Counted from the first letter of the stretch, positions 7,688 through 62,131 are shown. The stretch is 64,000 bases of DNA from Calditrichaceae bacterium (GCA_050178385.1 JBFXGD010000002.1:842-64841); one strand, 5' to 3'. Made by a program: numbers and translations. Notes: generated from the sequence alone by a model not told the origin.

Positions 7688-7693
7688 CGATGT

Positions 7694-7724
7694 AAAAAAA
7701 ATGGCAGGGGTCAATACCTGCCAT
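7694..7724 (-). terminator. Intrinsic terminator for the minus-strand redox/two-component block (may also stop dprA read-through)
   Basis: Perfect 8-bp stem ATGGCAGG/CCTGCCAT (7701-7708 and 7717-7724) with an 8-nt loop. On the minus strand the hairpin is followed by a T7 run (plus-strand A-run 7694-7700). Confidence 0.8.
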
Positions 7725-7760
7725 TCATGTCTTAATTAAGAAGAATATTCGAAATTTCTA

Positions 7761-8924
7761 TTAACGTTTGAAGAAATCGTTAACCACCGTTTCAAGTTCT
7801 TTATCTTTTAACCCTGAAAGCTCACCTAAATAAAGATGACCGTCAGCCGGAAATTTATCTTCATCTTTGGATGCTATCGCTACCTTTTTGATAAATTCCT
7901 GCACCCGCTTAATGTCAGTATGATAAAAACTTACCGCGCTTTCACCGATTTTTAAATCTTTGATCTCTAAATCAAGCTGTGATGATTCCAGTTTACAAAT
8001 CCAGTTTTTGTCATATGTGGTAGTATCAAGTCTGTCGAGATCATCAAGCAGCGCTTTGTTGATCTTCTCAACTTTACCCGATACAGGTGCGTTGAAAGGG
8101 ATTGAATGCGTACCCTGGCGGATACTGAAAAGATTTTGCCCTTTTTTGATTTCCATCCCCAGATTGGGAAGTTCGATGGAATCAATTTTACCGATTAATT
8201 TTTTTGCAAAATCGTCAATACCCACATTCACTTTTCCGTCCTGGTCAATTCCGGCCCAGCAGTGGCCCTCGGAAATGAAAACACCACCTGGGATGGAAAA
8301 TTCGACCGAGGCCGGAATCTGTGTGTCTGTCAGATGTGTAATATTAACCTGAGGAACAAGCTGCCGATGGATGCGCTCTTGTCTTGTGATCAGTGATTTT
8401 TTGATCATGGCGAGCAGTTCATCTTCAGTAAACGGCTTCTGAACATAATCCAACGCACCGAATTTCATAGTCTCAACAGCTGTTTCGACAGACGCGTAAC
8501 CGGTAATAACAATCACATCTATATCCGGCCGCAAATGTTTTACGCTTTTGCATACATCCACACCATCCATTTCGGGCATTTTTAAATCGACAAATACAAA
8601 ATCATAATGGTGTTTTTGTATTAATCCTAACGCCTCTTGTCCTGATTCAACGGTATCGACGCAATATCCGTCAAGGACAAGAATTTTTCTGAAGCTGTCA
8701 AGAATTACGGCTTCGTCGTCTACCGCAAGAATTTTAGCTTTAGGATTCTCAACTTCGACGCGTTTAAGGCTTTTAGCCTCATGAGTGAAATCCAGATTCA
8801 GGCTGACTTTAAGCGCTTCTTCGCGTTCACCTAAAATTCTTTTTGTGTTGATTTTTTTGATTATCATGCGAATGATGATATCTGCAATCACAAAAAGAAT
8901 GACTGCTAAAACTAAAAATAGCAT
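7761..8924 (-). CDS. Membrane-anchored response regulator: N-terminal TM helix + REC + GcvH-like domain lacking the lipoyl lysine
   Basis: Hydrophobic N-terminus MLFLVLAVILFVIADIIIRMII. REC motifs LAVDDE, FVFVDLKMPEMDG (Asp113), VITGY, QKPF. Residues ~215-325 align by eye to glycine-cleavage H protein (HCWAGID.DGKVNVGIDDFA..IGKIDSIELP..G......APVSGKV..IN..L). The position of the lipoyl-Lys (ESVKA in E. coli GcvH) reads QGTHS. I see no DNA-binding or AAA+ domain. Confidence 0.75.
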   Translation of the reverse strand: MLFLVLAVILFVIADIIIRMIIKKINTKRILGEREEALKVSLNLDFTHEAKSLKRVEVENPKAKILAVDDEAVILDSFRKILVLDGYCVDTVESGQEALGLIQKHHYDFVFVDLKMPEMDGVDVCKSVKHLRPDIDVIVITGYASVETAVETMKFGALDYVQKPFTEDELLAMIKKSLITRQERIHRQLVPQVNITHLTDTQIPASVEFSIPGGVFISEGHCWAGIDQDGKVNVGIDDFAKKLIGKIDSIELPNLGMEIKKGQNLFSIRQGTHSIPFNAPVSGKVEKINKALLDDLDRLDTTTYDKNWICKLESSQLDLEIKDLKIGESAVSFYHTDIKRVQEFIKKVAIASKDEDKFPADGHLYLGELSGLKDKELETVVNDFFKR

Positions 8925-8996
8925 TTTTTGGCTCCTTGGATAAGATATACATTTATAATCACATTATAAGTTTAAATTTATTTTTTCTGCTCTCCT

Positions 8997-9803
8997 CTAA
9001 ATTCTGTCTGAGCTGCAGGGTGTTAAATGCTTTAGTTCGTATTCAAGGTCAGAAGGAATGATACGATAAAACCACCCTTTGAAATAGGGATCCTTTTCTA
9101 TAATCTGTTTATCCTTCAGCAAATGATCATTTATTTCTATAATTCTTCCCGTCATCGGCGCAAGAATATTGTGAACAAGATTATCAGTAGTGACAAGTTG
9201 GGCACACGCGTTACCCTGGACAATCTCTTCATCCATATTTAAAAGTTCTATATGGTCAATGCTGTCAACCGTTCTCAAAAGCAAATCTGTGATGCCTGTT
9301 AATACAGAACCGTCATGTTCGATGTAAAGCCAGCTCCCATAACCTAGACGAAAATATTTTGCGGGGCAGGGGATATATATAATCGATGCATCATTTTTTA
9401 CTGAATTTACATGTTTTAAAGATTTATTTATTTCAGCATATTTTAAACCCCGAAAAACAGAACTCAGCAGTTCATCTACCGTAAATGGTTTTGGCAGAAA
9501 ATCTATCGCGCCTGTGTATAACGATTTTACCGCATTTTCAACCGTGGAATATCCGGTAGTCATTATAACCGGAGAATCCAGATTCTGAGGAATGATCTCA
9601 TCCAGAAACATAAAACCGTCCATCTCAGGGAGCATAATATCACATATGATCAGCCGGTATCTGTTTTTGGCGATTTTATTCAAACCTTCATTCGCGTCAA
9701 GCGAAGAATCAACACTAAAGCCTTCGTTGGTACAAAGTTTGATTACGGAATCAATGATCACCTGTTCATCATCAATAATAAGTATATCATATTCTTTGCT
9801 CAT
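8997..9803 (-). CDS. Response regulator: REC + GcvH-like domain lacking the lipoyl lysine
   Basis: REC motifs IIDDEQ, LIICDIMLPEMDG, MTTGY, LPKPF. The C-terminal ~115 aa is GcvH-like (WLYIEHDGSVLTGITDLL..VDSIDHIELL......LAPMTGRIIEIN..L......DPYFKGWFYRI). The Lys position reads TTDNL. No HTH recognisable. Confidence 0.75.
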   Translation of the reverse strand: MSKEYDILIIDDEQVIIDSVIKLCTNEGFSVDSSLDANEGLNKIAKNRYRLIICDIMLPEMDGFMFLDEIIPQNLDSPVIMTTGYSTVENAVKSLYTGAIDFLPKPFTVDELLSSVFRGLKYAEINKSLKHVNSVKNDASIIYIPCPAKYFRLGYGSWLYIEHDGSVLTGITDLLLRTVDSIDHIELLNMDEEIVQGNACAQLVTTDNLVHNILAPMTGRIIEINDHLLKDKQIIEKDPYFKGWFYRIIPSDLEYELKHLTPCSSDRI

Positions 9804-9817
9804 CGGGATTCCTGATT

Positions 9818-11689
9818 TTAACTTGCTGACCTGGTGGCCGGGATCCTCATCGTGAAGGTTGTCCCTTCGCCGATATTGCTGTCGACGGTTATGGTACCGT
9901 TATGATTGTCAATAATACCCCAGATGATCGCCAGGCCAAGCCCCGTGCCTCGCTGGCCTTTTGTTGAATAAAATGGTTCAAATATGCGATAGAGATTCTC
10001 TTTTGGAATGCCGCATCCCGAGTCCGAAATTTTAATCTCTATAAATTCCCTTTTACCTTCCAGTTCAATCATCTTCCAGTTCTGCCATCCGCAATCCCTG
10101 TTTGTACAGCCGACAAACTCACCCTGTGTTGGAATTTCAAATGAATACACGGAAGATGCGCATTTTGGGCATTTGTTGTTTTTTTCTATTAGCGAAATAT
10201 CGCAATGGGGGCACAACAACTGTAGCGACTTATTTTTACTATATTCGATACCAAAGTAATGCCTTGATTTCCCGTAGATCGGGTCGAGATTAACAAAACC
10301 GGAGCTGCCGTTTGAAAGCGCCTTTAGTTTAATCGAAGGTAAACCGTCGATTTTAATTTCATTGTCGATAAGACTGTGTCCTTTTGGACAAGCGGCTCTT
10401 TTAATCTGCATATAGCCTTTTGGTGGAACAAAAAGTAAAGATGTTGACACATTTATGTTTCCACCGTTTTTCCCGATTGCATCATTCGCGTTAACCACCA
10501 GGTTGATAAAAACCTGTTCTATCTGGTTGGCGTCAATGGTTACTTTTGGCAGCTGTATATCAAGGTTTTTAATAATTTTTACATTGTTGATGGTCAATTG
10601 ATTCTCTACCACACCAATCGCGTGGTTAAGAATATCATTGATGTTCGAATTATTTTTTTTCGGAACTGATTGTCTGGCAAAATCCAGCAGTCCTTTTACA
10701 ATTTCCCTGCTTCTTTTTGTTTCTCTGACAATTACTTCTAAATCCGATTGCAATTCCGAATTGCCCTTGGTCCTCTTTAGTAAAAAACTGCTGTATGTTA
10801 AAATCCCGGTCAGCGGGTTGTTAATCTCGTGCGCGACGCCGGCCGCGAGACGGCCAAGTGAGGCCAGTTTATCTGATTGAAATAACTGCATTCTGGCTTC
10901 GGATAATTTTTGCGTCATGTTGTTAAATGAACGGGCAAGCATTCCCAATTCATCATTGCTGTGTTCCTTAATCGTGTAGTTCAGATTTCCGGCGGCGACA
11001 TTCTTCGTAGCCTGTAGCAGAGTGTTCACCGGTTTGTCAACCAAACTTTTCACGAAGTACCAAACGGTGCCGCTCAGGAGAATGATGGCAATGATGGCAA
11101 ACATGAGCATTTTGAATTTTGTTGACGCAATCTGATTGTCAATTGCCTTGATGGAAATAGTGACATCGAGGACGCCAAGAACGGTTTTTTCAGATGCGTG
11201 TGCATGACAATCGGCTTCCCAGCAGGAAGGTTCATTATAAATCGGATTAATTATACCTAACACCCTGGAAGAATCAGGTGCTAATTTATAGACACGCGTG
11301 CGCTTTTCAATCTCAAGTTTTTCCAGGGGTTTATTAGCCGCGTGACAAGCGTAACATGCTTCGGTCTTTTTGTCAACCATATGTCCGATTGCAGTAGTAT
11401 CAGAAGAATAGATGATCTCTCCTTCTTTATTAAAAACCCGGACTTCGTTAATGCAGGGTTGATTCCCGATTGTCTGAATAATGTTATGGATATGCGCGCG
11501 TTCATTAAGAAGCATTCCGTATCTGGTGCTATTCTTAACCGTTTCGCTTAGTTGGTTGACATGTCTCTCCACCTCATCAAAAAGAGCCTTACTCTGAGAT
11601 TGTACGTTCAGATAGGCAAATACGAATATGATGATGATGGTTGCCGTTCCTACGGCGGAGATTAATTTAAATCCAATTTTCTTGAACAT
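9818..11689 (-). CDS. Sensor histidine kinase: two TM helices, periplasmic domain with c-haem-type motifs, HAMP, DHp, and a HATPase domain split by a Cys-rich insertion
   Basis: TM1 at ~res 9-28 and TM2 at ~193-213. Between them lie CYACH (res 112-116) and CWEADCH (156-162). HAMP-like 214-265. H-box AGVAHEINNPL. N-box NLVVNANDA. Then a ~128-aa insertion (res ~418-545) containing CPKGH, CPHC..x10..CPKC and C-x4-C. This is followed by G1 DSGCGIP, the F-box FEPFYSTK and G2 GTGLGLA. Confidence 0.85.
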   Translation of the reverse strand: MFKKIGFKLISAVGTATIIIIFVFAYLNVQSQSKALFDEVERHVNQLSETVKNSTRYGMLLNERAHIHNIIQTIGNQPCINEVRVFNKEGEIIYSSDTTAIGHMVDKKTEACYACHAANKPLEKLEIEKRTRVYKLAPDSSRVLGIINPIYNEPSCWEADCHAHASEKTVLGVLDVTISIKAIDNQIASTKFKMLMFAIIAIILLSGTVWYFVKSLVDKPVNTLLQATKNVAAGNLNYTIKEHSNDELGMLARSFNNMTQKLSEARMQLFQSDKLASLGRLAAGVAHEINNPLTGILTYSSFLLKRTKGNSELQSDLEVIVRETKRSREIVKGLLDFARQSVPKKNNSNINDILNHAIGVVENQLTINNVKIIKNLDIQLPKVTIDANQIEQVFINLVVNANDAIGKNGGNINVSTSLLFVPPKGYMQIKRAACPKGHSLIDNEIKIDGLPSIKLKALSNGSSGFVNLDPIYGKSRHYFGIEYSKNKSLQLLCPHCDISLIEKNNKCPKCASSVYSFEIPTQGEFVGCTNRDCGWQNWKMIELEGKREFIEIKISDSGCGIPKENLYRIFEPFYSTKGQRGTGLGLAIIWGIIDNHNGTITVDSNIGEGTTFTMRIPATRSAS

Positions 11690-11732
11690 TTTATTCTTTC
11701 AGATGTCGAATTTTGTTGACTATGACATTAAG

Positions 11733-11794
11733 GGCGGTATGCATAATTTGAAAATTTCAGGGTTTGCCCGCGTGATTAAAGGATGCATACCGCC
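11733..11794. repeat. 12-bp perfect inverted repeat with a 38-nt spacer between the cytochrome gene and the kinase gene
   Basis: GGCGGTATGCAT (11733-11744) and ATGCATACCGCC (11783-11794) are exact reverse complements. They sit in the 156-bp gap between the cytochrome stop (11846) and the kinase start (11689). Confidence 0.7.
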
Positions 11795-11845
11795 TATTCT
11801 TATCTTACATAATATTACGAAACAAATATATGCCTGATCAATAAT

Positions 11846-13009
11846 TTAAAGTTTTGTTTTTGTTAAGCTGCCTGGCATTGCAGCCGGGTATTTATAATTA
11901 TCATGGCAATTGTCACATGTCGGTTTTTTGTTAAAATTGAGATCAATATGGCATGATTCACAATCCATTGCACTATGGTTTTCATCAAGGACTAATCCGG
12001 TTACGCGATGTTTGAATGACTCGGGATTCCAGTTTTTGTGACAGCTGGTGCATGTTGGATTCAGACTTGAAAAGATTTTATTCTCGCCATGACAAGTCTG
12101 ACATCTAAGGGATGCGTGGTAACTTTTGAGCGGCCATTTTGCGGTAACAGAATGGTCGAACGGTCCCTTTTGCTTGTTGCTGTGACACTTAGTACAATTA
12201 TCATCAGCATGGCAGGAGAAGCAGGTTTCATGTTTTTCATCAACTGATTTACTTGCAGCTACAGGTTTTGCCGTGGCTACCTGTTCCTTATAAGTTGATT
12301 TTGAAAGGTCGTGACAACGACTACAGCTCTCGTTGGTATGACAATCAACGCATTTAAATCCAAACTTTCCTGAATGTTCATTATGATAGAAAGTCACATA
12401 TTTGCCCTCTTTGGCCGCGGTTTCGTAAACCACTTTATCCGGTTCTGTAATCTTTGGGTGTTTTGAGCCAATAATGTCACTTTGATCAGAAATCTTTTTC
12501 TCGGGAGAGGCGGCACCTTTTAAAACATGGCATACATTGCAGTCAGTTGTATGACTCCATTCGCGGTGACAGCTTAAACACTGCCGGTGATAGGCGCCTT
12601 TTAGGCCCGGTTTGCTGAGATCAGCTCTTATGGGTTCTGTCTCATGACATTCCTTACACGCGGCAATCTTACCGGGAGGGTTATGATGATGACATGATGT
12701 ACAGCTTCCGGACATTTGTCCCATTTCAGCATGAAGCCTGTGCGGGAAAACCGTCGGTTCGTATATGTTTGATAAAATATCGATATTCAAAGTATCGGGT
12801 CCCTCATCAGGAGTATGGTGAATGGTTACCACATTCCGTTTAAATTCAGGGCAGCATGTAAGACACGGGTCCGCTTCCGTCGGATTGTCGCAGCTGTGAC
12901 AGGATTTGCAATCCAGAGCAAGTTTTGAATGATGTTCAGTACTGACTGTCTGTGCAAACAGCGGGGTGATGATGAGTAAAAAGCCAATAATCAGATTTAA
13001 TTTTTTCAT
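11846..13009 (-). CDS. Periplasmic multihaem c-type cytochrome (13 CXXCH motifs, cytochrome c3-family-like)
   Basis: Signal peptide MKKLNLIIGFLLIITPLFAQ. There are 13 CXXCH motifs: CKSCH, CTSCH, CKECH, CLSCH, CNVCH, CVDCH, CSRCH, CFSCH, CTKCH, CQTCH, CTSCH, CESCH, CDNCH. No CXXCK motif is present. The ATG overlaps the upstream gene's stop (ATGA at 13006-13009). Confidence 0.9.
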   Translation of the reverse strand: MKKLNLIIGFLLIITPLFAQTVSTEHHSKLALDCKSCHSCDNPTEADPCLTCCPEFKRNVVTIHHTPDEGPDTLNIDILSNIYEPTVFPHRLHAEMGQMSGSCTSCHHHNPPGKIAACKECHETEPIRADLSKPGLKGAYHRQCLSCHREWSHTTDCNVCHVLKGAASPEKKISDQSDIIGSKHPKITEPDKVVYETAAKEGKYVTFYHNEHSGKFGFKCVDCHTNESCSRCHDLSKSTYKEQVATAKPVAASKSVDEKHETCFSCHADDNCTKCHSNKQKGPFDHSVTAKWPLKSYHASLRCQTCHGENKIFSSLNPTCTSCHKNWNPESFKHRVTGLVLDENHSAMDCESCHIDLNFNKKPTCDNCHDNYKYPAAMPGSLTKTKL

Positions 13010-14250
13010 TTTGCAGCCCCTCGAATAGCGAATTTTGTTTTTGGCCTATATCCTTTAACCGGTTGGCTTATAACAGGGAATATCAAAACGAGGGTGCGGT
13101 ACAACAATACTTCAAGAGCGATAAAGCCTACCGTGACGGAAATTTCTCCGATTGACGGGAAATATGAATTCATTGCATAAGGTGGTGTGTAGGCAACGAT
13201 AAAGGTATTGATTCTGTTTATCAGTACTCCGAATATCACCAAAAGAGAAGCAGTGAATAACCAGGATGGGGATTTCAGAGCTTTATTCGAGAGGAAAATC
13301 CTTAGAGGGATAATCACGCCGAACAGCATTTCAATGATAAACATTATGCTTTCGATATTGAAATCGAGTAAATAAACATAGGTTCCCCGAATAACCATAT
13401 CGCCTATTTTAAATGCAAGGTAAATTCCCAACAACGGGCCGATTATACGTCCCAAATTGGAGAGTACATGCATTTCTCTTTTTAGTCCAAAGGACTTTGA
13501 CGCGATCATAGATTCAAGAACGACCATCGGAAATCCAACAGAGATCGCGGAGAGTAAAAACAGAAGTGGCGCGATAGGAGTCTGCCAGAGCGGGTGAATC
13601 TTAGAACCTGCTAAGATCATAAGTGTTCCAAGGGATGACTGATGCAGACAGGATAACACAACACCGGCAATCAAAAAGATGAACATGGCCGGATTCAGAA
13701 TTTTGTCAAGAAATTTTAGCAGTGATTCCAGGGGTTTTACAAGACCTGCCAGAAATCCGTTTAAATGCACCTGACCTTTAAACCGCTCAATGACAACAGG
13801 GATAAATTCAATGTACAAAACAGTGAGATATGTCATCACGCATATACCGACTTCGAACAACGCTGAATTTCCGTTCCACATATACATGACATGATAAATA
13901 GAATAATAACGTCCGAGATCAATAAAGACTCCCAGGGCGACAAATGTATATCCTAACATGGCTGTGAGCAGAGCAGGACGTACAATAACGTGATAGTCTC
14001 CTCTATGGAAAACATGTCCGAGCGCGGCAGTTGTAAATCCTCCCGCGGCAAGGGCTACTCCCGCAGCCACATCAATGCCGATCCAAATACCCCATGGATG
14101 CTGATTGTCAAGGTTAGTTACTGCTCCAAGTCCGAATACAAATCTCAATAAAGCGAATATCAAGCCGTTTACAGCTAGTATCGTCAAGAAAATTACACCG
14201 GGTGTAAAAAATTTTTTTTCAATACGAGCAGGTTTAATCATTTCGTCCAT
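13006..14250 (-). CDS. NrfD/PsrC/HmcC-like integral membrane quinone-interacting subunit
   Basis: 414 aa and almost entirely hydrophobic, with about 10 predicted helices. Its N-terminus and overall layout resemble the polysulfide reductase NrfD family. It is flanked by an FeS subunit and a cytochrome, as in Hmc/Nhc/Qrc-type complexes. Confidence 0.8.
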   Translation of the reverse strand: MDEMIKPARIEKKFFTPGVIFLTILAVNGLIFALLRFVFGLGAVTNLDNQHPWGIWIGIDVAAGVALAAGGFTTAALGHVFHRGDYHVIVRPALLTAMLGYTFVALGVFIDLGRYYSIYHVMYMWNGNSALFEVGICVMTYLTVLYIEFIPVVIERFKGQVHLNGFLAGLVKPLESLLKFLDKILNPAMFIFLIAGVVLSCLHQSSLGTLMILAGSKIHPLWQTPIAPLLFLLSAISVGFPMVVLESMIASKSFGLKREMHVLSNLGRIIGPLLGIYLAFKIGDMVIRGTYVYLLDFNIESIMFIIEMLFGVIIPLRIFLSNKALKSPSWLFTASLLVIFGVLINRINTFIVAYTPPYAMNSYFPSIGEISVTVGFIALEVLLYRTLVLIFPVISQPVKGYRPKTKFAIRGAAK

Positions 14251-14259
14251 TATCGCCTC

Positions 14260-15153
14260 CTACTCAACTTCTTCTTTGTTCTTGTTGATCCACATGATAC
14301 CGCCAAGCAGCGCATAAAGAGATACCGGTGGGATAAAATATTTAAATATTGCGTGCTGAATGGCTTCCGATACGCCGGGCGCCGGGTTATCAGCTAATTT
14401 TGGGAAATCCAGATCAGCGAAATCTGTCGATGAAAGATACAGCCATGATGTACCGCCGACTTCTTTCTCACCGTAAATATGGTCAAAATATTTTTCGGGA
14501 TTCTTTTTGATTCTTTCACGGGCGATTTTTAACAGATCGGAGCGTTTTCCATAGGTCAGAGCTTCCACAGGGCACATTTCTACGCATGCCGGAAGCAGAC
14601 CTTCTTTTGTTCTTTCAAAACAAAAATCACATTTTTGGACCTGTGGCGTAAGAGCATTTTTGTATTCATAGGAAGGGATCTGAAAAGGACAGGCGACCAT
14701 GCAGTACCGGCAGCCGATACACTTATTGACATCATATATCACCGATCCGTTCTCTTCTTTAGAAAGTGCGCCTACAATACATGCGGAAACGCAAGCCGGG
14801 TGATCGCAGTGCATGCACTGGACCTTGACGTTTATGGGGTATTTACCTCCATTGTTGTTGTCATATTCATTAACAACGGTGTGACCATCAAAATCCGGCC
14901 TTCTTAATTTTTCAAACACAGACCGGTCATCATATGATTCAATCGATCCGGTAGGGAAATCATGTGCCTTTTTACAGGCATACTCACATTTTCGGCAGCC
15001 AATGCAAACGGTCGTGTCAACAAGCACGCCCATCCGATCTTCCATCAATACATTTTTGGGGGCAGCCTTTGCCTGCTTGGCTCCCACACCGGTTAGACCG
15101 GCACCGACCAATCCGGCGGTTTTGAAAAAATCGCGTCGGCTCTGTTTACCCAT
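14260..15153 (-). CDS. TAT-exported 4x[4Fe-4S] ferredoxin subunit (NrfC/HybA/HmcB-like) with a C-terminal TM anchor
   Basis: Twin-arginine signal SRRDFFKTAGLVGAGL. Four Cys clusters: CIGCRKCEYAC, CMHCDHPACVSAC, CIGCRYCMVACP, CDFC..x13..CVEMCP. Hydrophobic C-terminal helix YFIPPVSLYALLGGIMWI. Confidence 0.88.
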   Translation of the reverse strand: MGKQSRRDFFKTAGLVGAGLTGVGAKQAKAAPKNVLMEDRMGVLVDTTVCIGCRKCEYACKKAHDFPTGSIESYDDRSVFEKLRRPDFDGHTVVNEYDNNNGGKYPINVKVQCMHCDHPACVSACIVGALSKEENGSVIYDVNKCIGCRYCMVACPFQIPSYEYKNALTPQVQKCDFCFERTKEGLLPACVEMCPVEALTYGKRSDLLKIARERIKKNPEKYFDHIYGEKEVGGTSWLYLSSTDFADLDFPKLADNPAPGVSEAIQHAIFKYFIPPVSLYALLGGIMWINKNKEEVE

Positions 15154-15267
15154 TTTCGACTCCTTGTATTCGATTTCAAAATAATAATTTCACAAAATCA
15201 GCACGACAGATAAACTAATCGCACAAATATTTAATACCAATAGAACCATTCGTTACAGTTGGTGATA

Positions 15268-15281
15268 GCAAAATTTGTGCC
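15268..15281 (-). promoter_or_regulatory. Candidate sigma-54 (-24/-12) promoter for the nrfC-like operon
   Basis: The minus strand reads aaaGGCACaaattTTGCta, which is GG-N10-GC with exact spacing and a good -12 TTGCT. It lies ~115 nt upstream of the ATG at 15153 and is followed by an AAGGAG RBS. Confidence 0.5.
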
Positions 15282-15376
15282 TTTCTTTCGGAGAACGCGT
15301 TTTTAGATGATTTAATCTGTTAAATCTATGACAACGCTGCTTCCTCGCAATGGGTGGAATTTTACTTTCTCAGGTT

Positions 15377-15401
15377 GGATTAATAATTTTCGGATTAATA
15401 A
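15377..15401. repeat. Direct repeat GGATTAATAA x2 (15-bp period) upstream of the sigma-54-like promoter
   Basis: GGATTAATAA occurs at 15377-15386 and again at 15392-15401. Confidence 0.6.
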
Positions 15402-15404
15402 ACA

Positions 15405-15454
15405 AAGTGTTTCAAAAAGTGTTTCATACGGGATAATTAAAATAGTATGTTTCA
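15405..15454. promoter_or_regulatory. Three copies of a GTTTCA-containing motif; candidate upstream activator sites
   Basis: AAGTGTTTCA at 15405-15414 and 15417-15426 is a perfect 10-nt direct repeat with a 12-bp period. A third copy, TATGTTTCA, is at 15446-15454. The motifs are 125-175 bp upstream of the -24 element on the minus strand. Confidence 0.4.
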
Positions 15455-15918: not shown

Positions 15919-16797
15919 ATGTACAAAATTGTTGAAGCAGGCTTTCTTGCGGAAAATATTAAACGTTTTGTGATTGAAGCGCCGAGAATTGCCAGCAAAC
16001 GAAAAGCGGGTCAATTTGTTATTATACGAATTGATGAGCATGGCGAAAGAATCCCTTTGACCATCGCGGATTCCGACAAAGAAAAGGGAACGATTACGAT
16101 TATTGTCCAGGGGATTGGAAAAACCACAAGCGCTCTGAATCTGAAAGAAGCGGGAGATCAGATTCTGGATGTTGTCGGACCGTTGGGGCACGAGTCTGAA
16201 ATCGAAAAATTTGGTACTGTCGTAAGTATTGGCGGCGGAGTGGGAACGGCAATTGCTTTTCCGACAGCGGTTGCTCTAAAAGATGCCGGAAATTATGTGA
16301 TCACAATTAACGGCGCCAGAAGCAAGGATATGGTTATCCTGGAAGATGAACTAAGGTCAGTAAGCGATGAGGCATACGTGACTACTGATGACGGATCTTA
16401 CGGATTCCACGGTTTTGTAACCCAGAAACTGCAGGAACTGCTCGATGCCGGCAAAAAAATTGATTTTGTTCTGGCCATTGGTCCGATCCCGATGATGAAA
16501 GCGGTAGCCGAAGTGACACGGCCGTATAAAATAAAAACAATTGTCAGTCTGAACCCCATTATGGTTGACGGTACAGGAATGTGCGGTGGATGCCGGGTTG
16601 TTGTGGGTAATGAATCTAAATTTGCCTGTGTTGATGGTCCGGAATTTGACGCGCATCTTGTCGACTTCAAAAATCTTTCCGACCGGAACAAGATGTATTC
16701 CAAACACGAGAAACTATCACTGGAAAAATTCAAACACGAATGCAATCTGGATAAACAGGCTAAAGCGCACAAGGAGCTCGAACAAGTTGAGAGCTGA
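15919..16797 (+). CDS. nfnA: NADH-dependent reduced ferredoxin:NADP+ oxidoreductase subunit A (NfnA / SudB-like FAD + 2Fe-2S subunit)
   Basis: MYKIVEAGFLAENIKRFVIEAPRIASKRKAGQFVIIRIDEHGERIPLTIADSD..GTITIIVQGIGKTT is typical of NfnA/SudB. C-terminal CGGCRV...C cluster motif. Confidence 0.85.
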   Translation: MYKIVEAGFLAENIKRFVIEAPRIASKRKAGQFVIIRIDEHGERIPLTIADSDKEKGTITIIVQGIGKTTSALNLKEAGDQILDVVGPLGHESEIEKFGTVVSIGGGVGTAIAFPTAVALKDAGNYVITINGARSKDMVILEDELRSVSDEAYVTTDDGSYGFHGFVTQKLQELLDAGKKIDFVLAIGPIPMMKAVAEVTRPYKIKTIVSLNPIMVDGTGMCGGCRVVVGNESKFACVDGPEFDAHLVDFKNLSDRNKMYSKHEKLSLEKFKHECNLDKQAKAHKELEQVES

Positions 16798-16863
16798 TTT
16801 TTAAATTATTTAGAAATTTAATATTTAGAAGAAATAAATTTAAATAAAAAAAATGGTGAACGA

Positions 16864-18291
16864 ATGCAAAAGTTGACAGCAAAAGAACGCATGAAAATAG
16901 CCCGGCATCCTATGGTTGAACAGGATCATCTGGAACGGGGACATAATTTCAAAGAGGTAAACCTCGGATATACCACTCAGATGGCACAGGAAGAGGCGTT
17001 AAGATGTTTACAATGCGCGAAGCCGACATGTGTACAGGGGTGTCCGGTTAATATACAAATTAAGGATTTTGTTACTCTGATCGCGGAAGGTGATTTTATT
17101 GGTGCCGTGCACAAAATTAAAGAAGACAACGCTCTCCCCGCGATTTGCGGACGTGTTTGTCCTCAGGAAGAGCAGTGTGAGCAGGTTTGTGTCGTGGCGA
17201 AGAGAGGCGAACCTGTTGCCATTGGAAATCTGGAACGGTTTGTGGCTGATTATGAAAGAACAAGCGGGAAAGTCGAACTGCCGAAAGTGGGAGCTCCAAC
17301 TGGGAAAAAAGTTGCTATAGTTGGCAGCGGTCCGGCCGGATTGAGCTGCGCTAAAGATATGATTCAGATGGGACATAAAGTGACCGTATTCGAAGCGCTC
17401 CATGAGTTGGGCGGGGTGCTGGTCTATGGAATTCCGGAATTTCGTCTGCCGAAAGATATCGTGCGGCAGGAAATCGAAGGTCTACAAAAAATGGGCGTTG
17501 AGTTTGTTACCGATGCCGTAATCGGAAGGACAACCACTATCGATGAACTCATGGAAGAAGAAGGGTATGACTCCGTGTTTGTTGGCGTGGGCGCCGGACT
17601 GCCATGGTTTCTTGGAATTCCTGGTGAAAATCTGATCGGAGTTTATTCGGCAAATGAATTTCTTACCCGTGTTAATTTGATGAAGGCGTACGATTTTCCA
17701 AATTTCGATTCGCCTGTTTTGGATTGCAAAGATAAGAATATTGCTGTTTTCGGTGGTGGCAACACCGCGATGGACTCAGTACGCACCGCGCTCAGGTTAG
17801 GAGCGAAAAACGCTTATATTGTATATCGCCGTTCTGACAAGGAAATGCCGGCACGCGCTGAGGAAGTAAAACATGCCAAGGAAGAGGGAATCCAGTTTCT
17901 GATGCTGACGAGTCCGCTTGAATTTGTCGGGGACGAAAGCGGCTGGCTGAATTCCATGAGATGCATCAAAATGGAACTTGGTGAACCTGATGCATCGGGC
18001 CGGCGGCGTCCGGTACCCATTGAAGATTCAGAGTTCGTTATGGAAATTGATTTGGCAATTATCGCTATCGGAAATGGATCAAATCCCCTTATCAAACAAA
18101 CTTCACCCGAAATAGAATTCACAAAACGCGGCACGATCGCCGTTGATAGTGAGACAATGAAAACATCCAAAAAAGGCGTGTTCGCCGGCGGGGATATCGT
18201 AACCGGCGGGGCAACAGTCATTCTGGCGATGGGGGCCGGCAGAAAAGCCGCGGCCGCCATGAATGATTTTATGAATAACGGCGATTGGTAA
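16864..18291 (+). CDS. nfnB: NfnB / glutamate synthase small-chain-like (GltD/SudA family) FAD/NAD(P) oxidoreductase
   Basis: N-terminal FeS motifs CLQCAKPTCVQGCP and CGRVCPQEEQCEQVC. Dinucleotide folds VAIVGSGPAGLSCA and VFGGGNTAMD. C-terminal GVFAGGDIVTGGATVI. Confidence 0.88.
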   Translation: MQKLTAKERMKIARHPMVEQDHLERGHNFKEVNLGYTTQMAQEEALRCLQCAKPTCVQGCPVNIQIKDFVTLIAEGDFIGAVHKIKEDNALPAICGRVCPQEEQCEQVCVVAKRGEPVAIGNLERFVADYERTSGKVELPKVGAPTGKKVAIVGSGPAGLSCAKDMIQMGHKVTVFEALHELGGVLVYGIPEFRLPKDIVRQEIEGLQKMGVEFVTDAVIGRTTTIDELMEEEGYDSVFVGVGAGLPWFLGIPGENLIGVYSANEFLTRVNLMKAYDFPNFDSPVLDCKDKNIAVFGGGNTAMDSVRTALRLGAKNAYIVYRRSDKEMPARAEEVKHAKEEGIQFLMLTSPLEFVGDESGWLNSMRCIKMELGEPDASGRRRPVPIEDSEFVMEIDLAIIAIGNGSNPLIKQTSPEIEFTKRGTIAVDSETMKTSKKGVFAGGDIVTGGATVILAMGAGRKAAAAMNDFMNNGDW

Positions 18292-28564: not shown

Positions 28565-30091
28565 CTACATCACCATTTTTTCGTTAAATTCCTGAATCTG
28601 ATTTCGTCCGTTTCGTTTCGCATAATACAGCGCCGTGTCCGATTGATTTATTAAACTCTTATAATCCATAGAATCTTCCTGCAAAGATGCAACTCCGATG
28701 CTTACGGTAATATTTCCGTTGGGCTGCACCTCTTCGTGATCAAATTTGGCGCTTTCGATTCTTTCCCTTAAACGTTCGGCGAGAATTTTTGCTCCGTCTC
28801 TGTCAACCGCCGGCAGAATTACCGCAAATTCCTCCCCACCGTATCTTGCGACGATGTCGTTTTCACGAACGGTCTCTTTGAGTATATGACCGAGTTTACG
28901 AAGAACTTCATCACCGGCCTGATGACCAAGAGTATCGTTATAATTTTTAAAAAAATCAACATCCAGAATCAGAAGTGAGAGTCCAGTTTTGGTACGATTA
29001 TGACGTACCACCTCTTCTTTTAATCTCAGCTCAAAATATCGGAAATTGTGCAATTCAGTCATTCCGTCCGTATATGAAAGCTGTTCAACTTCATTATATA
29101 ACGCCGCGTTTGTTACGGCAACTGATATCATATTGCTTAGAATGGAAATCTGCTGTAATTCCCGTTCCTCATAATTCAGGTCCCTTACCCTGGGGCCCAG
29201 ACAGATAAGCCCTTCAAGTGAATTTTTAACAATAATGGGGGTAATAATCTCAATATGCAGGTTTAGCATCCTTTTTAACGCGGATGAATTTTTTAGTTTA
29301 TCGCTCATTTCCCTCAGCTTGACCGGATAACCGCGTGTTTCGAAAAATTTTTCCAGCGGATCACTTTTTTGAATCACAAGATCAGCGATATCTTTTTGAA
29401 AAAATCCCTTTGAATTAGTGACTTCGAGCCTTCTGGTCGCCGGCTTCATCGCATATAGAAATAACACGCTCTTGCAGGAAAACTGCCCAATAATAGTCAG
29501 CAGCGTGGAGTTGATCAGGCGCTTCATTTCAAGTATCGAATTGAGTTCCATAGAAATTTCAAACAAGGTATGAAGACCAAAAATATTTTTTCTCAATTCC
29601 CTGTTTTTCTCTATCAGAGTTTGATTAAGGTTGTTGATTTGCCTGTTAGCAGTGGTAAGCTGCAAGGATTGGCTAAGAAGTAGTTCATTCAGTTTTTTTA
29701 GCCGTAAGGCCGAATTGACGCGCGCGATGAGTTCATCCAGATGAAAAGGTTTTACCAAATAATCATCAGCGCCCGCACCGAGGCCCTGCACAATGTCACT
29801 CACCGTGTTTTTGGCGGTGATAATAATGATAGGGGTATAATTAGAGCCCTGATCAATCTTTTTTATTTCTTTAATTACCTCCAGCCCGGACATCCCCGGA
29901 AGCATTATATCCATAAGAATCAGGTCGGGTTCTTCATCCTTGAATTTTTGTAAACCCACTTCACCGTTTTCAGCTTCGATGGCCGTATAATTCTGAGATT
30001 TTAGATACTTTTTAAGTATCTTCATCATGTCCTGGTGGTCTTCGACGATCAATATTTTTTTTTGGTCTGTAACTTCCATATTTTTTCTCAT
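28565..30091 (-). CDS. Response regulator with GAF-like and GGDEF (diguanylate cyclase) domains
   Basis: REC motifs ILIVEDH, LILMDIMLPGMSG, KPF. Coiled linker, a central GAF-like segment, and a GGDEF domain with RYGGEEFAVILP. Confidence 0.88.
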   Translation of the reverse strand: MRKNMEVTDQKKILIVEDHQDMMKILKKYLKSQNYTAIEAENGEVGLQKFKDEEPDLILMDIMLPGMSGLEVIKEIKKIDQGSNYTPIIIITAKNTVSDIVQGLGAGADDYLVKPFHLDELIARVNSALRLKKLNELLLSQSLQLTTANRQINNLNQTLIEKNRELRKNIFGLHTLFEISMELNSILEMKRLINSTLLTIIGQFSCKSVLFLYAMKPATRRLEVTNSKGFFQKDIADLVIQKSDPLEKFFETRGYPVKLREMSDKLKNSSALKRMLNLHIEIITPIIVKNSLEGLICLGPRVRDLNYEERELQQISILSNMISVAVTNAALYNEVEQLSYTDGMTELHNFRYFELRLKEEVVRHNRTKTGLSLLILDVDFFKNYNDTLGHQAGDEVLRKLGHILKETVRENDIVARYGGEEFAVILPAVDRDGAKILAERLRERIESAKFDHEEVQPNGNITVSIGVASLQEDSMDYKSLINQSDTALYYAKRNGRNQIQEFNEKMVM

Positions 30092-59096: not shown

Positions 59097-60593
59097 ATGA
59101 AAATAAAATATTTTATATTACTGCTTATGCTTGCGGTAAATCTTAATGGGCAGACTACTGATACGCAGGAAGTCCGGGACAGACTGCAAAGGCTCGCGCT
59201 GAAAATCACGGAAATTAGAAGGCAGGCTACCAGATATCAGAATCAGCCGGCGATAGAAAAGATTGAAACTGCTCAGCAGGAATATCTCCTTGCGGTTGAT
59301 TTTCTCAGACAGGATCCCCCCGAATTACTTAAAGCCAAATTTCATTTTCTGAATGCTGACCGGTTGGCGGACCAGGCGGCTAAACTGGTTTTATACAAAC
59401 CTCTTTCCAGATTGAAAAATGAGCTTGATCAGGCGATACATCGCGCCGAACTTGCGGTACACCGGTCAGGGAATGACGAAGCGCGTTATTTTCTGACAAA
59501 AGCAAGCGCTTTTCGCGGTAAAGCGGAAGAAGAGTTAAGGAATGGCAGACCGATTCGCAGCATGGAACTGGCGCGGATTTCTTACTATTTTGCTCAAAAA
59601 ACGATTGACATAGCAGAAGGTAATCTAAATACCGGCGACACGGATAATAGTTATGAAGATAAATTACTCAATATCGAAAATTTATATGGCGAAGTTTCAG
59701 GCAGCCAAAATAACAACGCGGATCTTGATGACCTTTTGAAAAAATCACGAATGTTTATAGATAAATCCGGGAGACTGTATGAACAGGGTTTGGTCAGACA
59801 GGCGCTGGTTCAATTACAGATAAGTGAGCGTCTTTTGTATCGCGCGCTGGATATTAGTCAGAGCAATGGAACAAACCGCGAGAATGAGTACAAAATTAAT
59901 TTATATTCATTAAGACGCTATATAGAAGCGGTGGAGGCCGGTTTTTCGGAGAACACTCCGGCGAGAGCCTCTGAATTTCTCCGCAAAGCCAGGCAATTTT
60001 ACCAGGACGCTGAGAAAGCATTGAACGCAAACCAATACGCCGAATTTGAGAAAAGTGTCGCCTTGTCCAACCGCTTCGCCGGAAAAGCGCTGCAGCTGAA
60101 CAACACAGAACCCACTGATGATATTGGGAACATTCCCGACAGGTTAAGTGAGATCGGGCAGATTTTCCGGTTACAAAATGCAAAGACAAACAATTCAGGG
60201 GATGCCATAGTAATCTTTTTCAACGAACAGGCGGAAAAAAATTTAGAGGTGGCCCGCCGCGCTTATGAAAACGGAAACAATGCAAAGGCTGTGGTAAGGC
60301 TGCAGATAGCGCTTCGTTTTATAAATCGCGCCGAATACCTGCTCGGCAGGCAAAAAGATTCCAATCTCAACAGCATGGATTATGAAGGTTTCATAGACAG
60401 ATATCGCGACATACTTGAAAGATTAAAACAAAATCGCGACATCGATAACAGAACCGTTTCCATGATAGAAGCCATAGATGATATGTTGGATGTCCTGGAA
60501 AAAAATTACAGAAAGGGAGATACCGGAACGGCTTCTGAGCTTGCCAATATTATTCAGAACCAGGTAAATGAATTGTTGAAAAATAGCCGTTGA
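59097..60593 (+). CDS. Secreted all-helical repeat protein (about six ~50-75-aa helical-hairpin repeats, DUF4398-like)
   Basis: Signal peptide MKIKYFILLLMLAVNLNG. Recurrent pattern ..A...L.KA......AE.....G......A......A......A (for example ARYFLTKASAFRGKAEEELRNG, ASEFLRKARQFYQDAEKALNAN, EKNLEVARRAYENGNNAKA). Confidence 0.55.
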   Translation: MKIKYFILLLMLAVNLNGQTTDTQEVRDRLQRLALKITEIRRQATRYQNQPAIEKIETAQQEYLLAVDFLRQDPPELLKAKFHFLNADRLADQAAKLVLYKPLSRLKNELDQAIHRAELAVHRSGNDEARYFLTKASAFRGKAEEELRNGRPIRSMELARISYYFAQKTIDIAEGNLNTGDTDNSYEDKLLNIENLYGEVSGSQNNNADLDDLLKKSRMFIDKSGRLYEQGLVRQALVQLQISERLLYRALDISQSNGTNRENEYKINLYSLRRYIEAVEAGFSENTPARASEFLRKARQFYQDAEKALNANQYAEFEKSVALSNRFAGKALQLNNTEPTDDIGNIPDRLSEIGQIFRLQNAKTNNSGDAIVIFFNEQAEKNLEVARRAYENGNNAKAVVRLQIALRFINRAEYLLGRQKDSNLNSMDYEGFIDRYRDILERLKQNRDIDNRTVSMIEAIDDMLDVLEKNYRKGDTGTASELANIIQNQVNELLKNSR

Positions 60594-62131
60594 GTAAGAA
60601 CCGCATGAATAAATCCATCCTTATGTTCATGGTTTTGACCTTAGCGGTAATGACCGGACAACTGACGGCCCAGACCGGCGCATCCCATAACTATCACCTC
60701 CTGATTGAAGAAATCAGCCTGTTCAGGCAATATTACCCAATGGAAAACGATAGTCAGGCGCTGATTGATTCAGCCGCCGGCTATGCGCAAAACAATGATT
60801 TCGATATGGCTGTGGTTTTTCTTGAGCAGATTATCTCAAAAATAAAAACAGAAAACGCCGTGGCTGCGCCCAATGCCGAAAATTCTCTAAATATTTATCC
60901 TGATCATAGTGATCGATTCGAATGGATGATCAGATCCGGAATTGATTTTAACCGCCAGGAATTTGAGATCAATTATGTGGAAAACGATTCACTCCTCACA
61001 GAAGAAATTCAAAAACCTTTTATTGGATTTCAGATGCTGTACTGGCTTATCCGAAAACCTGGAAACACGGGCCTGACGGTCAAAAACAATTTCCGGTATG
61101 ATGAAGAAAGCCTTGAAGAAAATTTGGAAATTAGACATATTTTTTCCGGTTTAAAAGTGAACGGGTATATGGAATATGGATTTAGTTATGACAAGAACAG
61201 CGTATATGAAGATTTTGGCTATATGGAGACCAGCGGTATCCAGCACCTGAGCTGGAATATTACGCCTGAAGATCAGTTACAAATAGACAATACAATCCGA
61301 TACAAAAAATATAAGAATGCGTCCAGAAGCATCCCTGATTTTGTAAAAAATACACTTAGTCTGAATCTTTTTCATCTCAATGAGCCCGGAAGCTCGACCA
61401 ATTTCTATTATAATGCGGATATGAATGAAAGTCTGAAGTACTCAAATAACGATTTTTTGGAACAGAATTTTAAATTATCACTAAGCAACTTGTTTACAAA
61501 TAGTTTTAAAAATGAATTAAGTCTGGGGTTCCGTCACAACCGTTATGCTTATTCGTTTGATGAAAGTGTCAACAGAAATCAGTCAAGAGTGTTCTCGGCG
61601 GAGACAGGAGCCGATTTTTTATTAAGGAAGAATTTGTTTTTGGAATCAGATTACATTCTGGATTACAAAAATTATTCACAAAAAACCGACCAGGAACCGG
61701 ATTACATTCAGCACCGGTTTGATACGGTATTAAAAAAATATTTTAATGATTATTTTGATTTTCAACTGGGTTACCTGTTTGAAACAAGGCATCACTTTTT
61801 GAGAGGGAATGCGGGGAAGGTATATGTAGATGAACAAAATTATACCGGCAATGGAATCATTACGGGGATTGATTATTCAGGGGGAAATAATACATTTATT
61901 TCCTTAAGTGGATCTTATACGTGGCGAAGATATCCCTATGCGCAGGATGCGGCGCTGTCCATTTATTCGGACCGTAATGTGTTTAGTCTTTTTTTAATAG
62001 GACAGATTCCGGTTGCCGGAAATATTATATTCAATATATTCGCTTCCTATGATAATGATCAGGATAAAGACTGGGATAAAAATGATACAAGAAGCGCGCT
62101 TTTTACATCCGAGATTGAATATAAGTTTTGA
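60590..62131 (+). CDS. Hypothetical outer-membrane beta-barrel protein (513 aa)
   Basis: Signal peptide. An N-terminal helical segment followed by alternating amphipathic strands rich in Y/N/D. C-terminal ...SEIEYKF (terminal Phe, OMP signature). The TTG start overlaps the upstream stop (GTTGA). Confidence 0.55.
   Translation: MSKNRMNKSILMFMVLTLAVMTGQLTAQTGASHNYHLLIEEISLFRQYYPMENDSQALIDSAAGYAQNNDFDMAVVFLEQIISKIKTENAVAAPNAENSLNIYPDHSDRFEWMIRSGIDFNRQEFEINYVENDSLLTEEIQKPFIGFQMLYWLIRKPGNTGLTVKNNFRYDEESLEENLEIRHIFSGLKVNGYMEYGFSYDKNSVYEDFGYMETSGIQHLSWNITPEDQLQIDNTIRYKKYKNASRSIPDFVKNTLSLNLFHLNEPGSSTNFYYNADMNESLKYSNNDFLEQNFKLSLSNLFTNSFKNELSLGFRHNRYAYSFDESVNRNQSRVFSAETGADFLLRKNLFLESDYILDYKNYSQKTDQEPDYIQHRFDTVLKKYFNDYFDFQLGYLFETRHHFLRGNAGKVYVDEQNYTGNGIITGIDYSGGNNTFISLSGSYTWRRYPYAQDAALSIYSDRNVFSLFLIGQIPVAGNIIFNIFASYDNDQDKDWDKNDTRSALFTSEIEYKF

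Follow-up and report, generated by a model that had tools for sequence, protein, structure and literature searches.

Six minus-strand genes at positions 7,694–15,454 of a 64,000-nucleotide stretch of DNA from a Calditrichaceae bacterium (GCA_050178385.1 JBFXGD010000002.1:842-64841; the whole stretch is called the window below) combine a respiratory electron-transfer module with a sensor histidine kinase and two response regulators, each of which joins a receiver (REC) domain to a GcvH-like domain. The best explanation of our data is that this block works as a single unit, conserved in Calditrichota, Ignavibacteriota and KSB1 bacteria and expressed under anoxia. Its respiratory module is ordinary and of a known kind, and the novelty lies in the signalling half. 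As far as we searched, neither the pairing of this kinase with two REC-GcvH regulators nor the regular occurrence of such regulators beside redox complexes has been described. Homology indicates that the three signalling genes probably form the dedicated two-component system of the module, and that they control the respiratory complex directly and do not act on DNA is the reading best supported here, at about even odds. The initial annotation of the window, made from the sequence alone, recognised no described system with this gene order and this pairing of a kinase with REC-GcvH regulators; our literature searches likewise returned no published description of either the regulators or the six-gene arrangement.

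Layout of the block

Calling of open reading frames (ORFs) on the window DNA places the six genes head to tail, with intergenic gaps of 9, -4, 156, 14 and 72 nucleotides (nt). From the first gene to the last they are:

14260-15153, minus strand: NrfC-like iron-sulfur (Fe-S) protein, 297 amino acids (aa), Fer4_11 and a TAT signal
13006-14250, minus strand: NrfD-like membrane subunit, 414 aa, Pfam NrfD
11846-13009, minus strand: 13-haem c-type cytochrome, 387 aa, class III multihaem cytochrome
9818-11689, minus strand: sensor histidine kinase, 623 aa, HAMP, HisKA and HATPase_c
8997-9803, minus strand: soluble REC-GcvH regulator (RR1), 268 aa, Response_reg and GCV_H
7761-8924, minus strand: membrane-anchored regulator with a transmembrane (TM) segment, TM-REC-GcvH (RR2), 387 aa, Response_reg and GCV_H

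The domains were assigned by Pfam and NCBIfam profile searches, which back every domain call of the initial annotation, while ORF calls and a motif scan reproduce its six-gene layout, its gap sizes, the 13 CXXCH motifs of the cytochrome and the haem motifs of the kinase. The same scans gave no molybdopterin enzyme, hydrogenase, NrfA-type cytochrome, HTH domain or AAA+ activator in the block. All but six of the other ORFs of at least 150 aa in the window were scanned; most of those scanned are housekeeping genes, and none of these catalytic or DNA-binding/AAA+ types was found among them either. An electron-transfer part lacking a catalytic subunit, and regulators lacking a DNA-binding or AAA+ output, had both been proposed at the outset, and the scans of the block and window agree with this.

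Conservation of the gene linkage

Relatives of RR1 were collected by scanning one genome per GTDB species, and the best 80 of 218 loci were kept. All six genes are present in the same order in 64 of the 80, and another 12 are cut by a contig end and consistent with this arrangement, which gives 64 of 68 informative loci. The complete loci include those of Ignavibacterium album, Melioribacter roseus, a KSB1 genome and a closed Ignavibacteriota chromosome. The window itself comes from a Calditrichaceae metagenome-assembled genome, and NCBI has a protein (P0001) 100% identical to RR1; an exact look-up of RR1 gave no contig. The closest genome, L001, has six proteins 89–97% identical to those of the window; with L001 excluded, identity to the window is 62–72% for NrfC/NrfD, 38–49% for the cytochrome, 56–67% for the kinase, 49–66% for RR1 and 52–68% for RR2. 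One metagenome-assembled genome of M. roseus (L042, 5431-8016) carries two unrelated genes, encoding 205 and 652 aa, between the cytochrome and kinase genes.

Beyond these loci, the GcvH-like domain alone gave 1,640 matches among 1.84 billion cluster representatives. Most of the best matches are proteins of 250–280 aa in which the GcvH-like domain is C-terminal, that is, the REC-GCV_H layout. In word-indexed searches, close relatives of RR1 numbered about 1,500 and matches to RR2 nearly 5,000, the latter including matches to its receiver domain alone. Neighbourhoods of more distant family members look as follows:

L083, L084 and L090: identical six-gene order
L085: histidine kinase, REC-GcvH, TM-REC-GcvH, small cytochrome, NrfC and NrfD, the same parts reordered, with a GcvH domain 26% identical to that of the window
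L081 and L082: histidine kinase with an activator, REC-GcvH, a REC-Ni_hydr_CYTB fusion, a 555-aa multihaem cytochrome, Fer4_8, CCG and HdrA-like proteins
L087: REC-GcvH, then a REC-GcvH-Fer4_8 fusion, CCG and flavoprotein genes
L086: histidine kinase, REC-GcvH and a WD40 protein, with NiFe-hydrogenase genes nearby

The neighbourhoods of L088, L089 and L091 are too short to judge. Wherever the sequence suffices, the REC-GcvH gene directly follows the kinase gene. Reading the block as one unit, the initial annotation expected REC-GcvH homologues to lie beside nrfCD and cytochrome genes in other genomes. They do so at 64 of the 80 loci and in L083–L085 and L090, and in L085 the linkage survives a change of gene order.

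Several fusion proteins turned up in these searches. The REC-Ni_hydr_CYTB cytochrome b fusion (387 aa; L081 8996-10159, L082 5096-6259) is encoded directly after the REC-GcvH gene; it is unusual for a response regulator to be joined to a membrane subunit of respiration. In L087 a protein of 445 aa (P0184, 3347-4684) carries REC, GCV_H and the HdrC-like Fe-S domain Fer4_8, and in P0151 (1391 aa) three GCV_H domains occur alongside FAD-oxidase, Fer4_8 and two CCG domains.

The REC-GcvH regulators

In sequence and in fold, both receivers come closest to the NtrC/NtrX/DctD family, and their key residues are invariant: D11, D12, D55, T83 and K105 in 47 RR1 sequences, and D69, D70, D113, T141 and K163 in 47 RR2 sequences. 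The AlphaFold2 model of RR1 (pLDDT 86.7) shows the receiver, a long alpha-5 linker and the GcvH-like C-terminal domain, and that of RR2 (pLDDT 74.3, moderate confidence) an N-terminal TM helix, the receiver, the GcvH-like domain (residues 209-323) and a helical C-terminal tail. The two proteins thus share with NtrC1, DctD and NtrX their best-matching receivers and the long alpha-5 linker helix seen in the model, and differ from them in having an H-protein fold in place of the AAA+ and HTH_8 output. No PDB entry joins a receiver to a GcvH-like domain.

Resemblance to the H protein of the glycine-cleavage system is close in fold. Foldseek aligned the C-terminal domain of RR1 to the Escherichia coli H-protein with a TM-score of 0.86 and a root-mean-square deviation (rmsd) of 1.5 A, and the RR2 domain to H-protein with a TM-score of 0.90; over E. 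coli and Thermus H-protein targets (including 3a7a_B and 3a8j_E) the two domains gave target TM-scores of 0.86–0.90 and rmsd of 1.5–1.9 A. The Pfam GCV_H scores of the two regulators, 56 and 67 bits, lie above the gathering cut-off of 22.2, and their NCBIfam GcvH scores, 62.5 and 68.5, lie under the cut-off of 117. Unlike H protein, RR1 and RR2 are fused to a receiver and have no lipoyl lysine: where E. coli GcvH has K64 (motif ESVK), the aligned residue is Asn in RR1 and His in RR2, and distant REC-GcvH proteins have Gly or Arg. The lysine is missing from every REC-GcvH protein examined, so these domains are not lipoylatable at the canonical site; a DGC-GcvH relative from the same search (P0266, 313 aa, DGC and GCV_H domains) retains ESVK. 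No glycine-cleavage or lipoylation genes lie near the block. LbpA proteins are the lipoate-binding proteins of sulfur-oxidising sHdr systems, and a likeness to them exists in that REC-GcvH relatives adjoin Hdr-like Fe-S and CCG proteins.

The sensor kinase

The kinase consists of TM1, a periplasmic sensor (residues 32-185), TM2, HAMP, HisKA with H287 as the phospho-histidine, and a HATPase_c domain split by an insert (Pfam HisKA 57.6 bits, HATPase_c 77.6 bits). Two haem motifs, CYACH at residue 112 and CWEADCH at residue 156, lie between the TM segments, and their residues (C112/C115/H116 and C156/C161/H162) are present, together with H164 and H287, in 70 of 70 orthologues. A profile of the sensor built from the orthologues (residues 32-185) matches PDB entry 3b42, the sensor of GSU0935, over the whole domain with E = 1.2e-5, and the CX4CH motif of the kinase aligns with the haem-binding CXXCH of 3b42. 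The single window sequence scores 18.8 bits against Pfam PF21563, under the gathering threshold of 27. By this homology, the kinase is predicted to read the periplasm through a c-haem PAS-like domain with two haem motifs, related to the GSU0935 sensor. As in the Geobacter sulfurreducens chemoreceptors GSU0935 and GSU0582 (3b42, 3b47), the sensor lies between two TM helices and is followed by HAMP. It differs from them in that its output is a histidine kinase and not a chemoreceptor, that it adds a second, fully conserved CXXCH, and that the motif at the haem site is CX4CH.

The insert in HATPase_c is Cys-rich, about 120 aa long (residues 419-540), and C434, H438, C493, C496, C507, C510 and C528 within it are 99–100% conserved in 70 orthologues. 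Searches with it gave no more than weak zinc-ribbon matches (E ~0.1). Paralogous kinases in the relatives have the same sensor and no insert.

A receiver-less GcvH-like protein beside a second NrfCD module

A second cluster, with paralogues of NrfC and NrfD (NrfC' and NrfD'), is found within 24 of the 80 loci (L023 1-4195, minus strand; L026 5364-11370; and 22 others), usually divergent beside the first, and a GcvH-like gene was detected alongside in 23 of them. The encoded protein is membrane-anchored and has no receiver, and its gene lies directly upstream of that for NrfC', which is followed by NrfD' (L023 3521-4195; GCV_H E = 9e-9). NrfC' lacks a Tat signal and keeps the C-terminal hydrophobic tail. 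The cluster further encodes a Cys-rich protein of 246–251 aa with no Pfam match, a tetrahaem c554-like cytochrome and an insert-less kinase with the same haem sensor, after which comes a response regulator running off the locus end; at L029, where the regulator after the insert-less kinase is complete, it is an NtrC-type sigma-54 activator. A canonical TGGYAY-N5-TTGC element stands ahead of the paralogous cluster in 16 of 23 cases.

Two other proteins of these clusters were considered as relatives of the regulators and set aside. The Cys-rich protein has no similarity to REC-GcvH proteins, and a 163-aa ORF upstream of NrfC' in L026 has no significant similarity to RR2, the complete L023 gene being the one that carries GCV_H.

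With or without a receiver, a predicted membrane-tethered GcvH-like protein thus repeatedly accompanies NrfCD-type modules. This receiver-less protein, taken together with the HdrC-like and cytochrome b fusions, is our main argument for an H-protein fold that docks on redox machinery.

The electron-transfer module and its known counterparts

The Fe-S protein has a Tat signal (SRRDFFK; Pfam TAT_signal E = 0.0018, residues 5-20), a C-terminal hydrophobic tail seen by eye, and 16 Cys, the number expected for what would be four [4Fe-4S] clusters. It scores 78 bits for Fer4_11, and 338 and 257.7 bits for the NCBIfam models HmcB (cut-off 420) and HybA (cut-off 263), both under their equivalog cut-offs. 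The NrfD-like subunit matches PF03916 with 72 bits (cut-off 25.8) and has 10 hydrophobic segments in a hydropathy scan; no CXXCH or cofactor motifs were found in it. Its NCBIfam scores for HybB (361 bits; equivalog cut-off 450) and HmcC (262) do not reach the respective equivalog cut-offs either.

The cytochrome has a Sec signal, 13 CXXCH and zero CXXCK. The full set of 13 motifs is present in 62 of 64 orthologues, and another 14 His are conserved, as expected for haems with bis-His ligation that transfer electrons and not for a catalytic site. In the PDB search, the best match was between residues 67-162 and the HmcA C-terminal c3 domain (2e84, E = 4.6e-14); residues 66-162 also matched nine-haem cytochrome c (E = 4e-10), and residues 294-376 a small tetrahaem cytochrome. 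Beside the first haem motif, the extra cysteines C40, C49 and C53 are kept in 98% of orthologues, which suggests an N-terminal disulfide or an extra metal or thioether site.

By homology, the three genes can be assigned to an Nhc/Hmc/HybAB-type module without a catalytic site, which would shuttle electrons between the menaquinone pool and periplasmic partners, in either direction. As judged from sequence, the closest described complex is NhcABCD of Desulfovibrio, a TpIc3:quinone oxidoreductase (PMC8076601). Like the window module, it combines a periplasmic multihaem c3-type cytochrome with an NrfD-like subunit of 10 helices and has neither a catalytic nor a cytoplasmic subunit; its 4x[4Fe-4S] protein corresponds to the window Fe-S protein, in which four clusters are predicted. 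The two modules differ in haem number (13 in the window cytochrome, 9 in NhcA; 9HemeCytC 31 bits against a cut-off of 640) and in gene order, which is B-C-A in the window and A-B-C-D in Nhc; no NhcD-like small hydrophobic ORF occurs in the gaps of the block, and Nhc has no described counterpart of the dedicated kinase and the REC-GcvH regulators.

The Hmc complex is similar in that HmcB is the best NCBIfam match of the Fe-S protein and HmcC the second, after HybB, of the membrane subunit, and in that the redox-complex operon is followed by a response regulator gene in both systems. Nevertheless, the block lacks the 16-haem HmcA (NCBIfam HmcA 46 against a cut-off of 400), HmcD, the cytochrome b HmcE and the CCG protein HmcF; no cytochrome b or CCG protein was found in the block or among the scanned window ORFs. 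On the regulatory side, Rrf1 of Desulfovibrio vulgaris is treated as a homologue of single-domain CheY-like receivers (bioRxiv 10.64898/2026.06.30.735679), and Rrf1 was dropped as a candidate REC-GcvH protein on this description, not on its sequence. Rrf1 thus appears to be CheY-like, and Rrf2 is a repressor that binds DNA; a GcvH-like domain is not known in either, nor a kinase gene in the hmc operon.

Three-gene modules of HybA-like, HybB-like and multihaem proteins have also been described, with flanking genes reported as not conserved in the examples given (bioRxiv 10.1101/2023.11.02.564894). With these modules and with HybA/HybB of E. coli hydrogenase-2 the window module shares the Tat signal and apparent C-terminal tail anchor of the Fe-S protein, a HybB-like quinone subunit and a c-type cytochrome partner. 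It differs from hydrogenase-2 in that the window scans show no hydrogenase, and from the three-gene modules in that here the flank, the kinase and two regulators, is conserved. The novelty that the initial annotation saw in the block does not therefore extend to the electron-transfer half, since such HybA/HybB-like and multihaem modules, and Nhc, were already known. The genome paper of M. roseus lists Mros1572/1571 as NrfCD without a catalytic subunit (PMC3534657), and that of C. abyssi does not mention the cluster.

Expression in Melioribacter roseus

A membrane proteome of M. roseus compared strictly anaerobic maltose fermentation with aerobic acetate respiration, in three replicas each (PMC5492636, Table S2). 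Five entries concern us:

MROS_1567, named 'sigma-54 response regulator': anaerobic 3/3, aerobic 0
MROS_1568, named 'sigma-54 response regulator': anaerobic 3/3, aerobic 0
MROS_1569, named 'histidine kinase': anaerobic 3/3, aerobic 0
MROS_1571, named 'NrfD-like': anaerobic 3/3, aerobic 0
MROS_1572, named 'Fe-S protein': anaerobic 2/3, aerobic 0

Adjusted p-values are 0.005–0.008 for MROS_1567, 1568, 1569 and 1571 (PMC5492636). The naming of the first two fits a pattern of mis-annotation, one TM-REC-GcvH relative being named AlgB. The six consecutive proteins MROS_1567–1572 run in the order of the six-gene cluster, and we infer that they are its orthologues; on this assignment, those listed above appear in the membrane proteome only under strict anaerobiosis.

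Promoter, repeats, hairpin and terminator

The non-coding elements of the block are all read on the minus strand:

15268-15281, minus strand: sigma-54-type promoter GGCACAAATTTTGC (feature 15268..15282, AGGCAC-N5-TTGC, GG-N10-GC), 129 nt before the nrfC-like start codon
15448-15454, 15420-15426 and 15408-15414, minus strand: three direct TGAAACA repeats, 127-173 nt upstream of the -24 element
11730-11793, minus strand: hairpin GGCGGTATGCAT...ATGCATACCGCC with 12-bp perfect arms, in the 156-nt cytochrome-kinase gap
7691..7726, minus strand: intrinsic terminator GGCAGG...CCTGCC (stem + T8 at 7726-7699), with a 10-bp stem, 5 G-C pairs and T8

GGCAC-N5-TTGC has a single match on both strands of the 64-kb window, where 0.29 would be expected by chance, and this match is the block promoter, correctly oriented ahead of the first gene and kept in L001. 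Alignment of the intergenic DNA of the window with that of L001 leaves three conserved islands, namely the repeat block, the promoter and the ribosome-binding region. The TGAAACA block is nearly invariant and the flanking DNA has diverged, and the repeats are a candidate upstream activator site. The cytochrome-kinase gap has a folding energy of -34.3 kcal/mol (z = -2.7), and L001 keeps the arms of its hairpin; the hairpin may serve processing or stability, act as a partial terminator or bind a protein. The terminator separates the block from the convergent dprA. Rfam shows no known RNA family within the block. The promoter, the upstream repeats and the closing hairpin with its T-run had all been proposed, and the motif scan, the comparison with L001 and the folding bear them out.

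No sigma-54 activator is encoded in the block or among the scanned window ORFs. In relatives such activators, NtrC-type or PAS-type, adjoin the cluster (L029, L081, L084, L085). The description of the block as self-contained was therefore too strong, as a sigma-54 promoter requires an enhancer-binding activator that neither the block nor the window encodes.

It should be noted that the canonical motif was rejected as a universal feature of the orthologous loci: it occurs only in the window, in L001 and, far upstream, in L045. TGGYAY is carried 64–92 nt upstream of nrfC by 42 of 64 loci, the window included. In 41 of 63 related loci it takes the form TGG(C/T)A(C/T)-N4-TT(G/A)TAT at a near-fixed position, about 81 nt before nrfC in most Ignavibacteria. 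Compared with the sigma-54 consensus, this element resembles the -24 box, but its -12 part is one nt short and has GT or AT for GC; it may be a variant sigma-54 promoter. At the matching position (-86) the window has TGGTAT, but different bases follow.

Three further regions of the window were noted. An NfnAB/sulfide-dehydrogenase-like pair (15919-18291, plus strand; a DHODB_Fe-S_bind protein, then a Fer4_20 and Pyr_redox_2 protein) lies divergently upstream of the block, and its start forms another conserved island within the intergenic region that it shares with the block. A 508-aa REC-GGDEF regulator (28565-30091, minus strand) is the sole further receiver protein found in the window, with no kinase among the scanned ORFs neighbouring its gene. 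Two overlapping ORFs of 498 and 513 aa (59097-62131, plus strand) are practically without a Pfam match, apart from a weak HEPN in the first.

Proposed mechanism and alternative explanations

Direct control of the complex could proceed as follows. In this genome the unit would be transcribed from the sigma-54 promoter, with the driving activator encoded elsewhere. The kinase would phosphorylate both NtrC-type receivers, the soluble and the membrane-anchored one, and phosphorylation would, as it does in NtrC1 and DctD, alter the geometry of the receiver dimer by way of the long alpha-5 linker. The lipoyl-less H-protein fold would be the protein-docking module of each regulator, binding or releasing the cytoplasmic face of the redox complex (the NrfD loops) or assembly intermediates, and electron flow would thus be tuned post-translationally, faster than by transcription. 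We offer more tentatively a bolder version, in which the response regulators, acting on neither DNA nor second messengers, are regulatory subunits of the respiratory complex that dock on the NrfD-type module (on Hdr-like proteins or cytochrome b elsewhere) and gate electron flow or assembly within seconds according to the redox state of the periplasmic haem. That the output must act at the protein level was a good inference of the initial annotation, one which the fusions and the receiver-less paralogue strengthen; the 'must' is not established.

Several points weigh against direct control. Phosphotransfer, and contact of the GcvH-like domains with NrfD, NrfC or other proteins, are so far predictions. 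The mature Fe-S subunit and the cytochrome are periplasmic and the regulators cytoplasmic, so that only NrfD loops, precursors or the kinase are within reach of the regulators. In four of the 80 loci (L036, L070, L077 and L080, whose genomes are Melioribacter-like or unplaced Ignavibacteria) the kinase and both regulators are encoded with no nrfCD-cytochrome genes directly upstream, and in L086 the neighbour is the WD40 protein and not a membrane complex. The RR2 model is of moderate confidence, the M. roseus proteins were mapped by gene order and annotation and not by sequence, and sigma-54 activators are frequent neighbours, as would suit an indirect transcriptional role.

Such a role is the most serious alternative, and one that we consider somewhat unlikely. 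The REC-GcvH proteins would modulate a sigma-54 activator, as NifL does NifA and PspA does PspF, or sigma-54 itself, or one of them would be a phosphate sink, and the kinase signal would end in expression of the cluster instead of direct control of the complex. The promoter upstream of the block, the canonical promoters before 16 of 23 paralogous clusters, the adjacent activators of the four loci named above and receivers closest to the NtrC family all speak for it. Some of these activators are PAS-type and have no receiver, so they would need another route for the kinase signal. However, the scanned window ORFs include no activator, and the adjacent NtrC-type activator has its own receiver and its own paralogous kinase. 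The explanation also gives no reason for a membrane anchor on the second regulator and leaves the HdrC-like fusion, the REC-cytochrome b fusion and the receiver-less GcvH-like protein with NrfC'D' unaccounted for.

We find it improbable that the GcvH-like domains are swinging-arm carriers of a covalently bound group, perhaps an unusual acyl or sulfur species, serving Hdr-like or NrfC-like Fe-S proteins in the manner of LbpA, with the receiver gating access. A true H-protein fold and the fusion or adjacency of GCV_H to Hdr-like Fer4_8/CCG proteins are what such carriers would show, and a Cys equivalent to C200 occurs in RR1 and in three distant REC-GcvH members. This semi-conserved Cys is, however, also present in E. 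coli GcvH, missing from RR2 and off the hairpin tip. The explanation is weakened because no REC-GcvH protein examined has the lipoyl lysine, which the DGC-GcvH relative retains; Asn, His, Gly or Arg stands in its place. No lipoate ligase or modification gene is linked at the loci examined, and both NCBIfam GcvH scores fall short of the family cut-off.

Equally hard to credit is inherited synteny without functional coupling, the kinase and regulators controlling distant targets: the four loci with the signalling trio alone, the L042 insertion, the 156-nt gap with a hairpin that could divide two transcription units and the origin of the 80 loci in related phyla would allow it, but the linkage holds at 49–66% protein identity over 64 species, the inferred M. 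roseus orthologues of both halves co-appear only anaerobically, and the explanation is weakened because rearranged and fused versions exist, the linkage being re-created in another gene order in L085 and distant REC-GcvH genes associating with, and sometimes fusing to, other redox complexes.

Significance

Control of the respiratory chain in bacteria is understood almost wholly at the level of transcription. Here a kinase that apparently reads periplasmic haem is tied to two regulators whose output domain is neither an enzyme nor of a type that binds DNA or nucleotides. The question of direct action can be put to the test directly, as both M. roseus and I. album are available in culture and carry the cluster, and what appear to be its proteins are detectably expressed in M. 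roseus. If the regulators do act directly on the complexes, they would represent a new output class for two-component response regulators, a function for a lipoyl-less H-protein fold and a post-translational layer of control in anaerobic respiration. This would explain fast switching of electron routes in two groups that abound in sediments, bioreactors and the subsurface, the Ignavibacteria and the Calditrichota.

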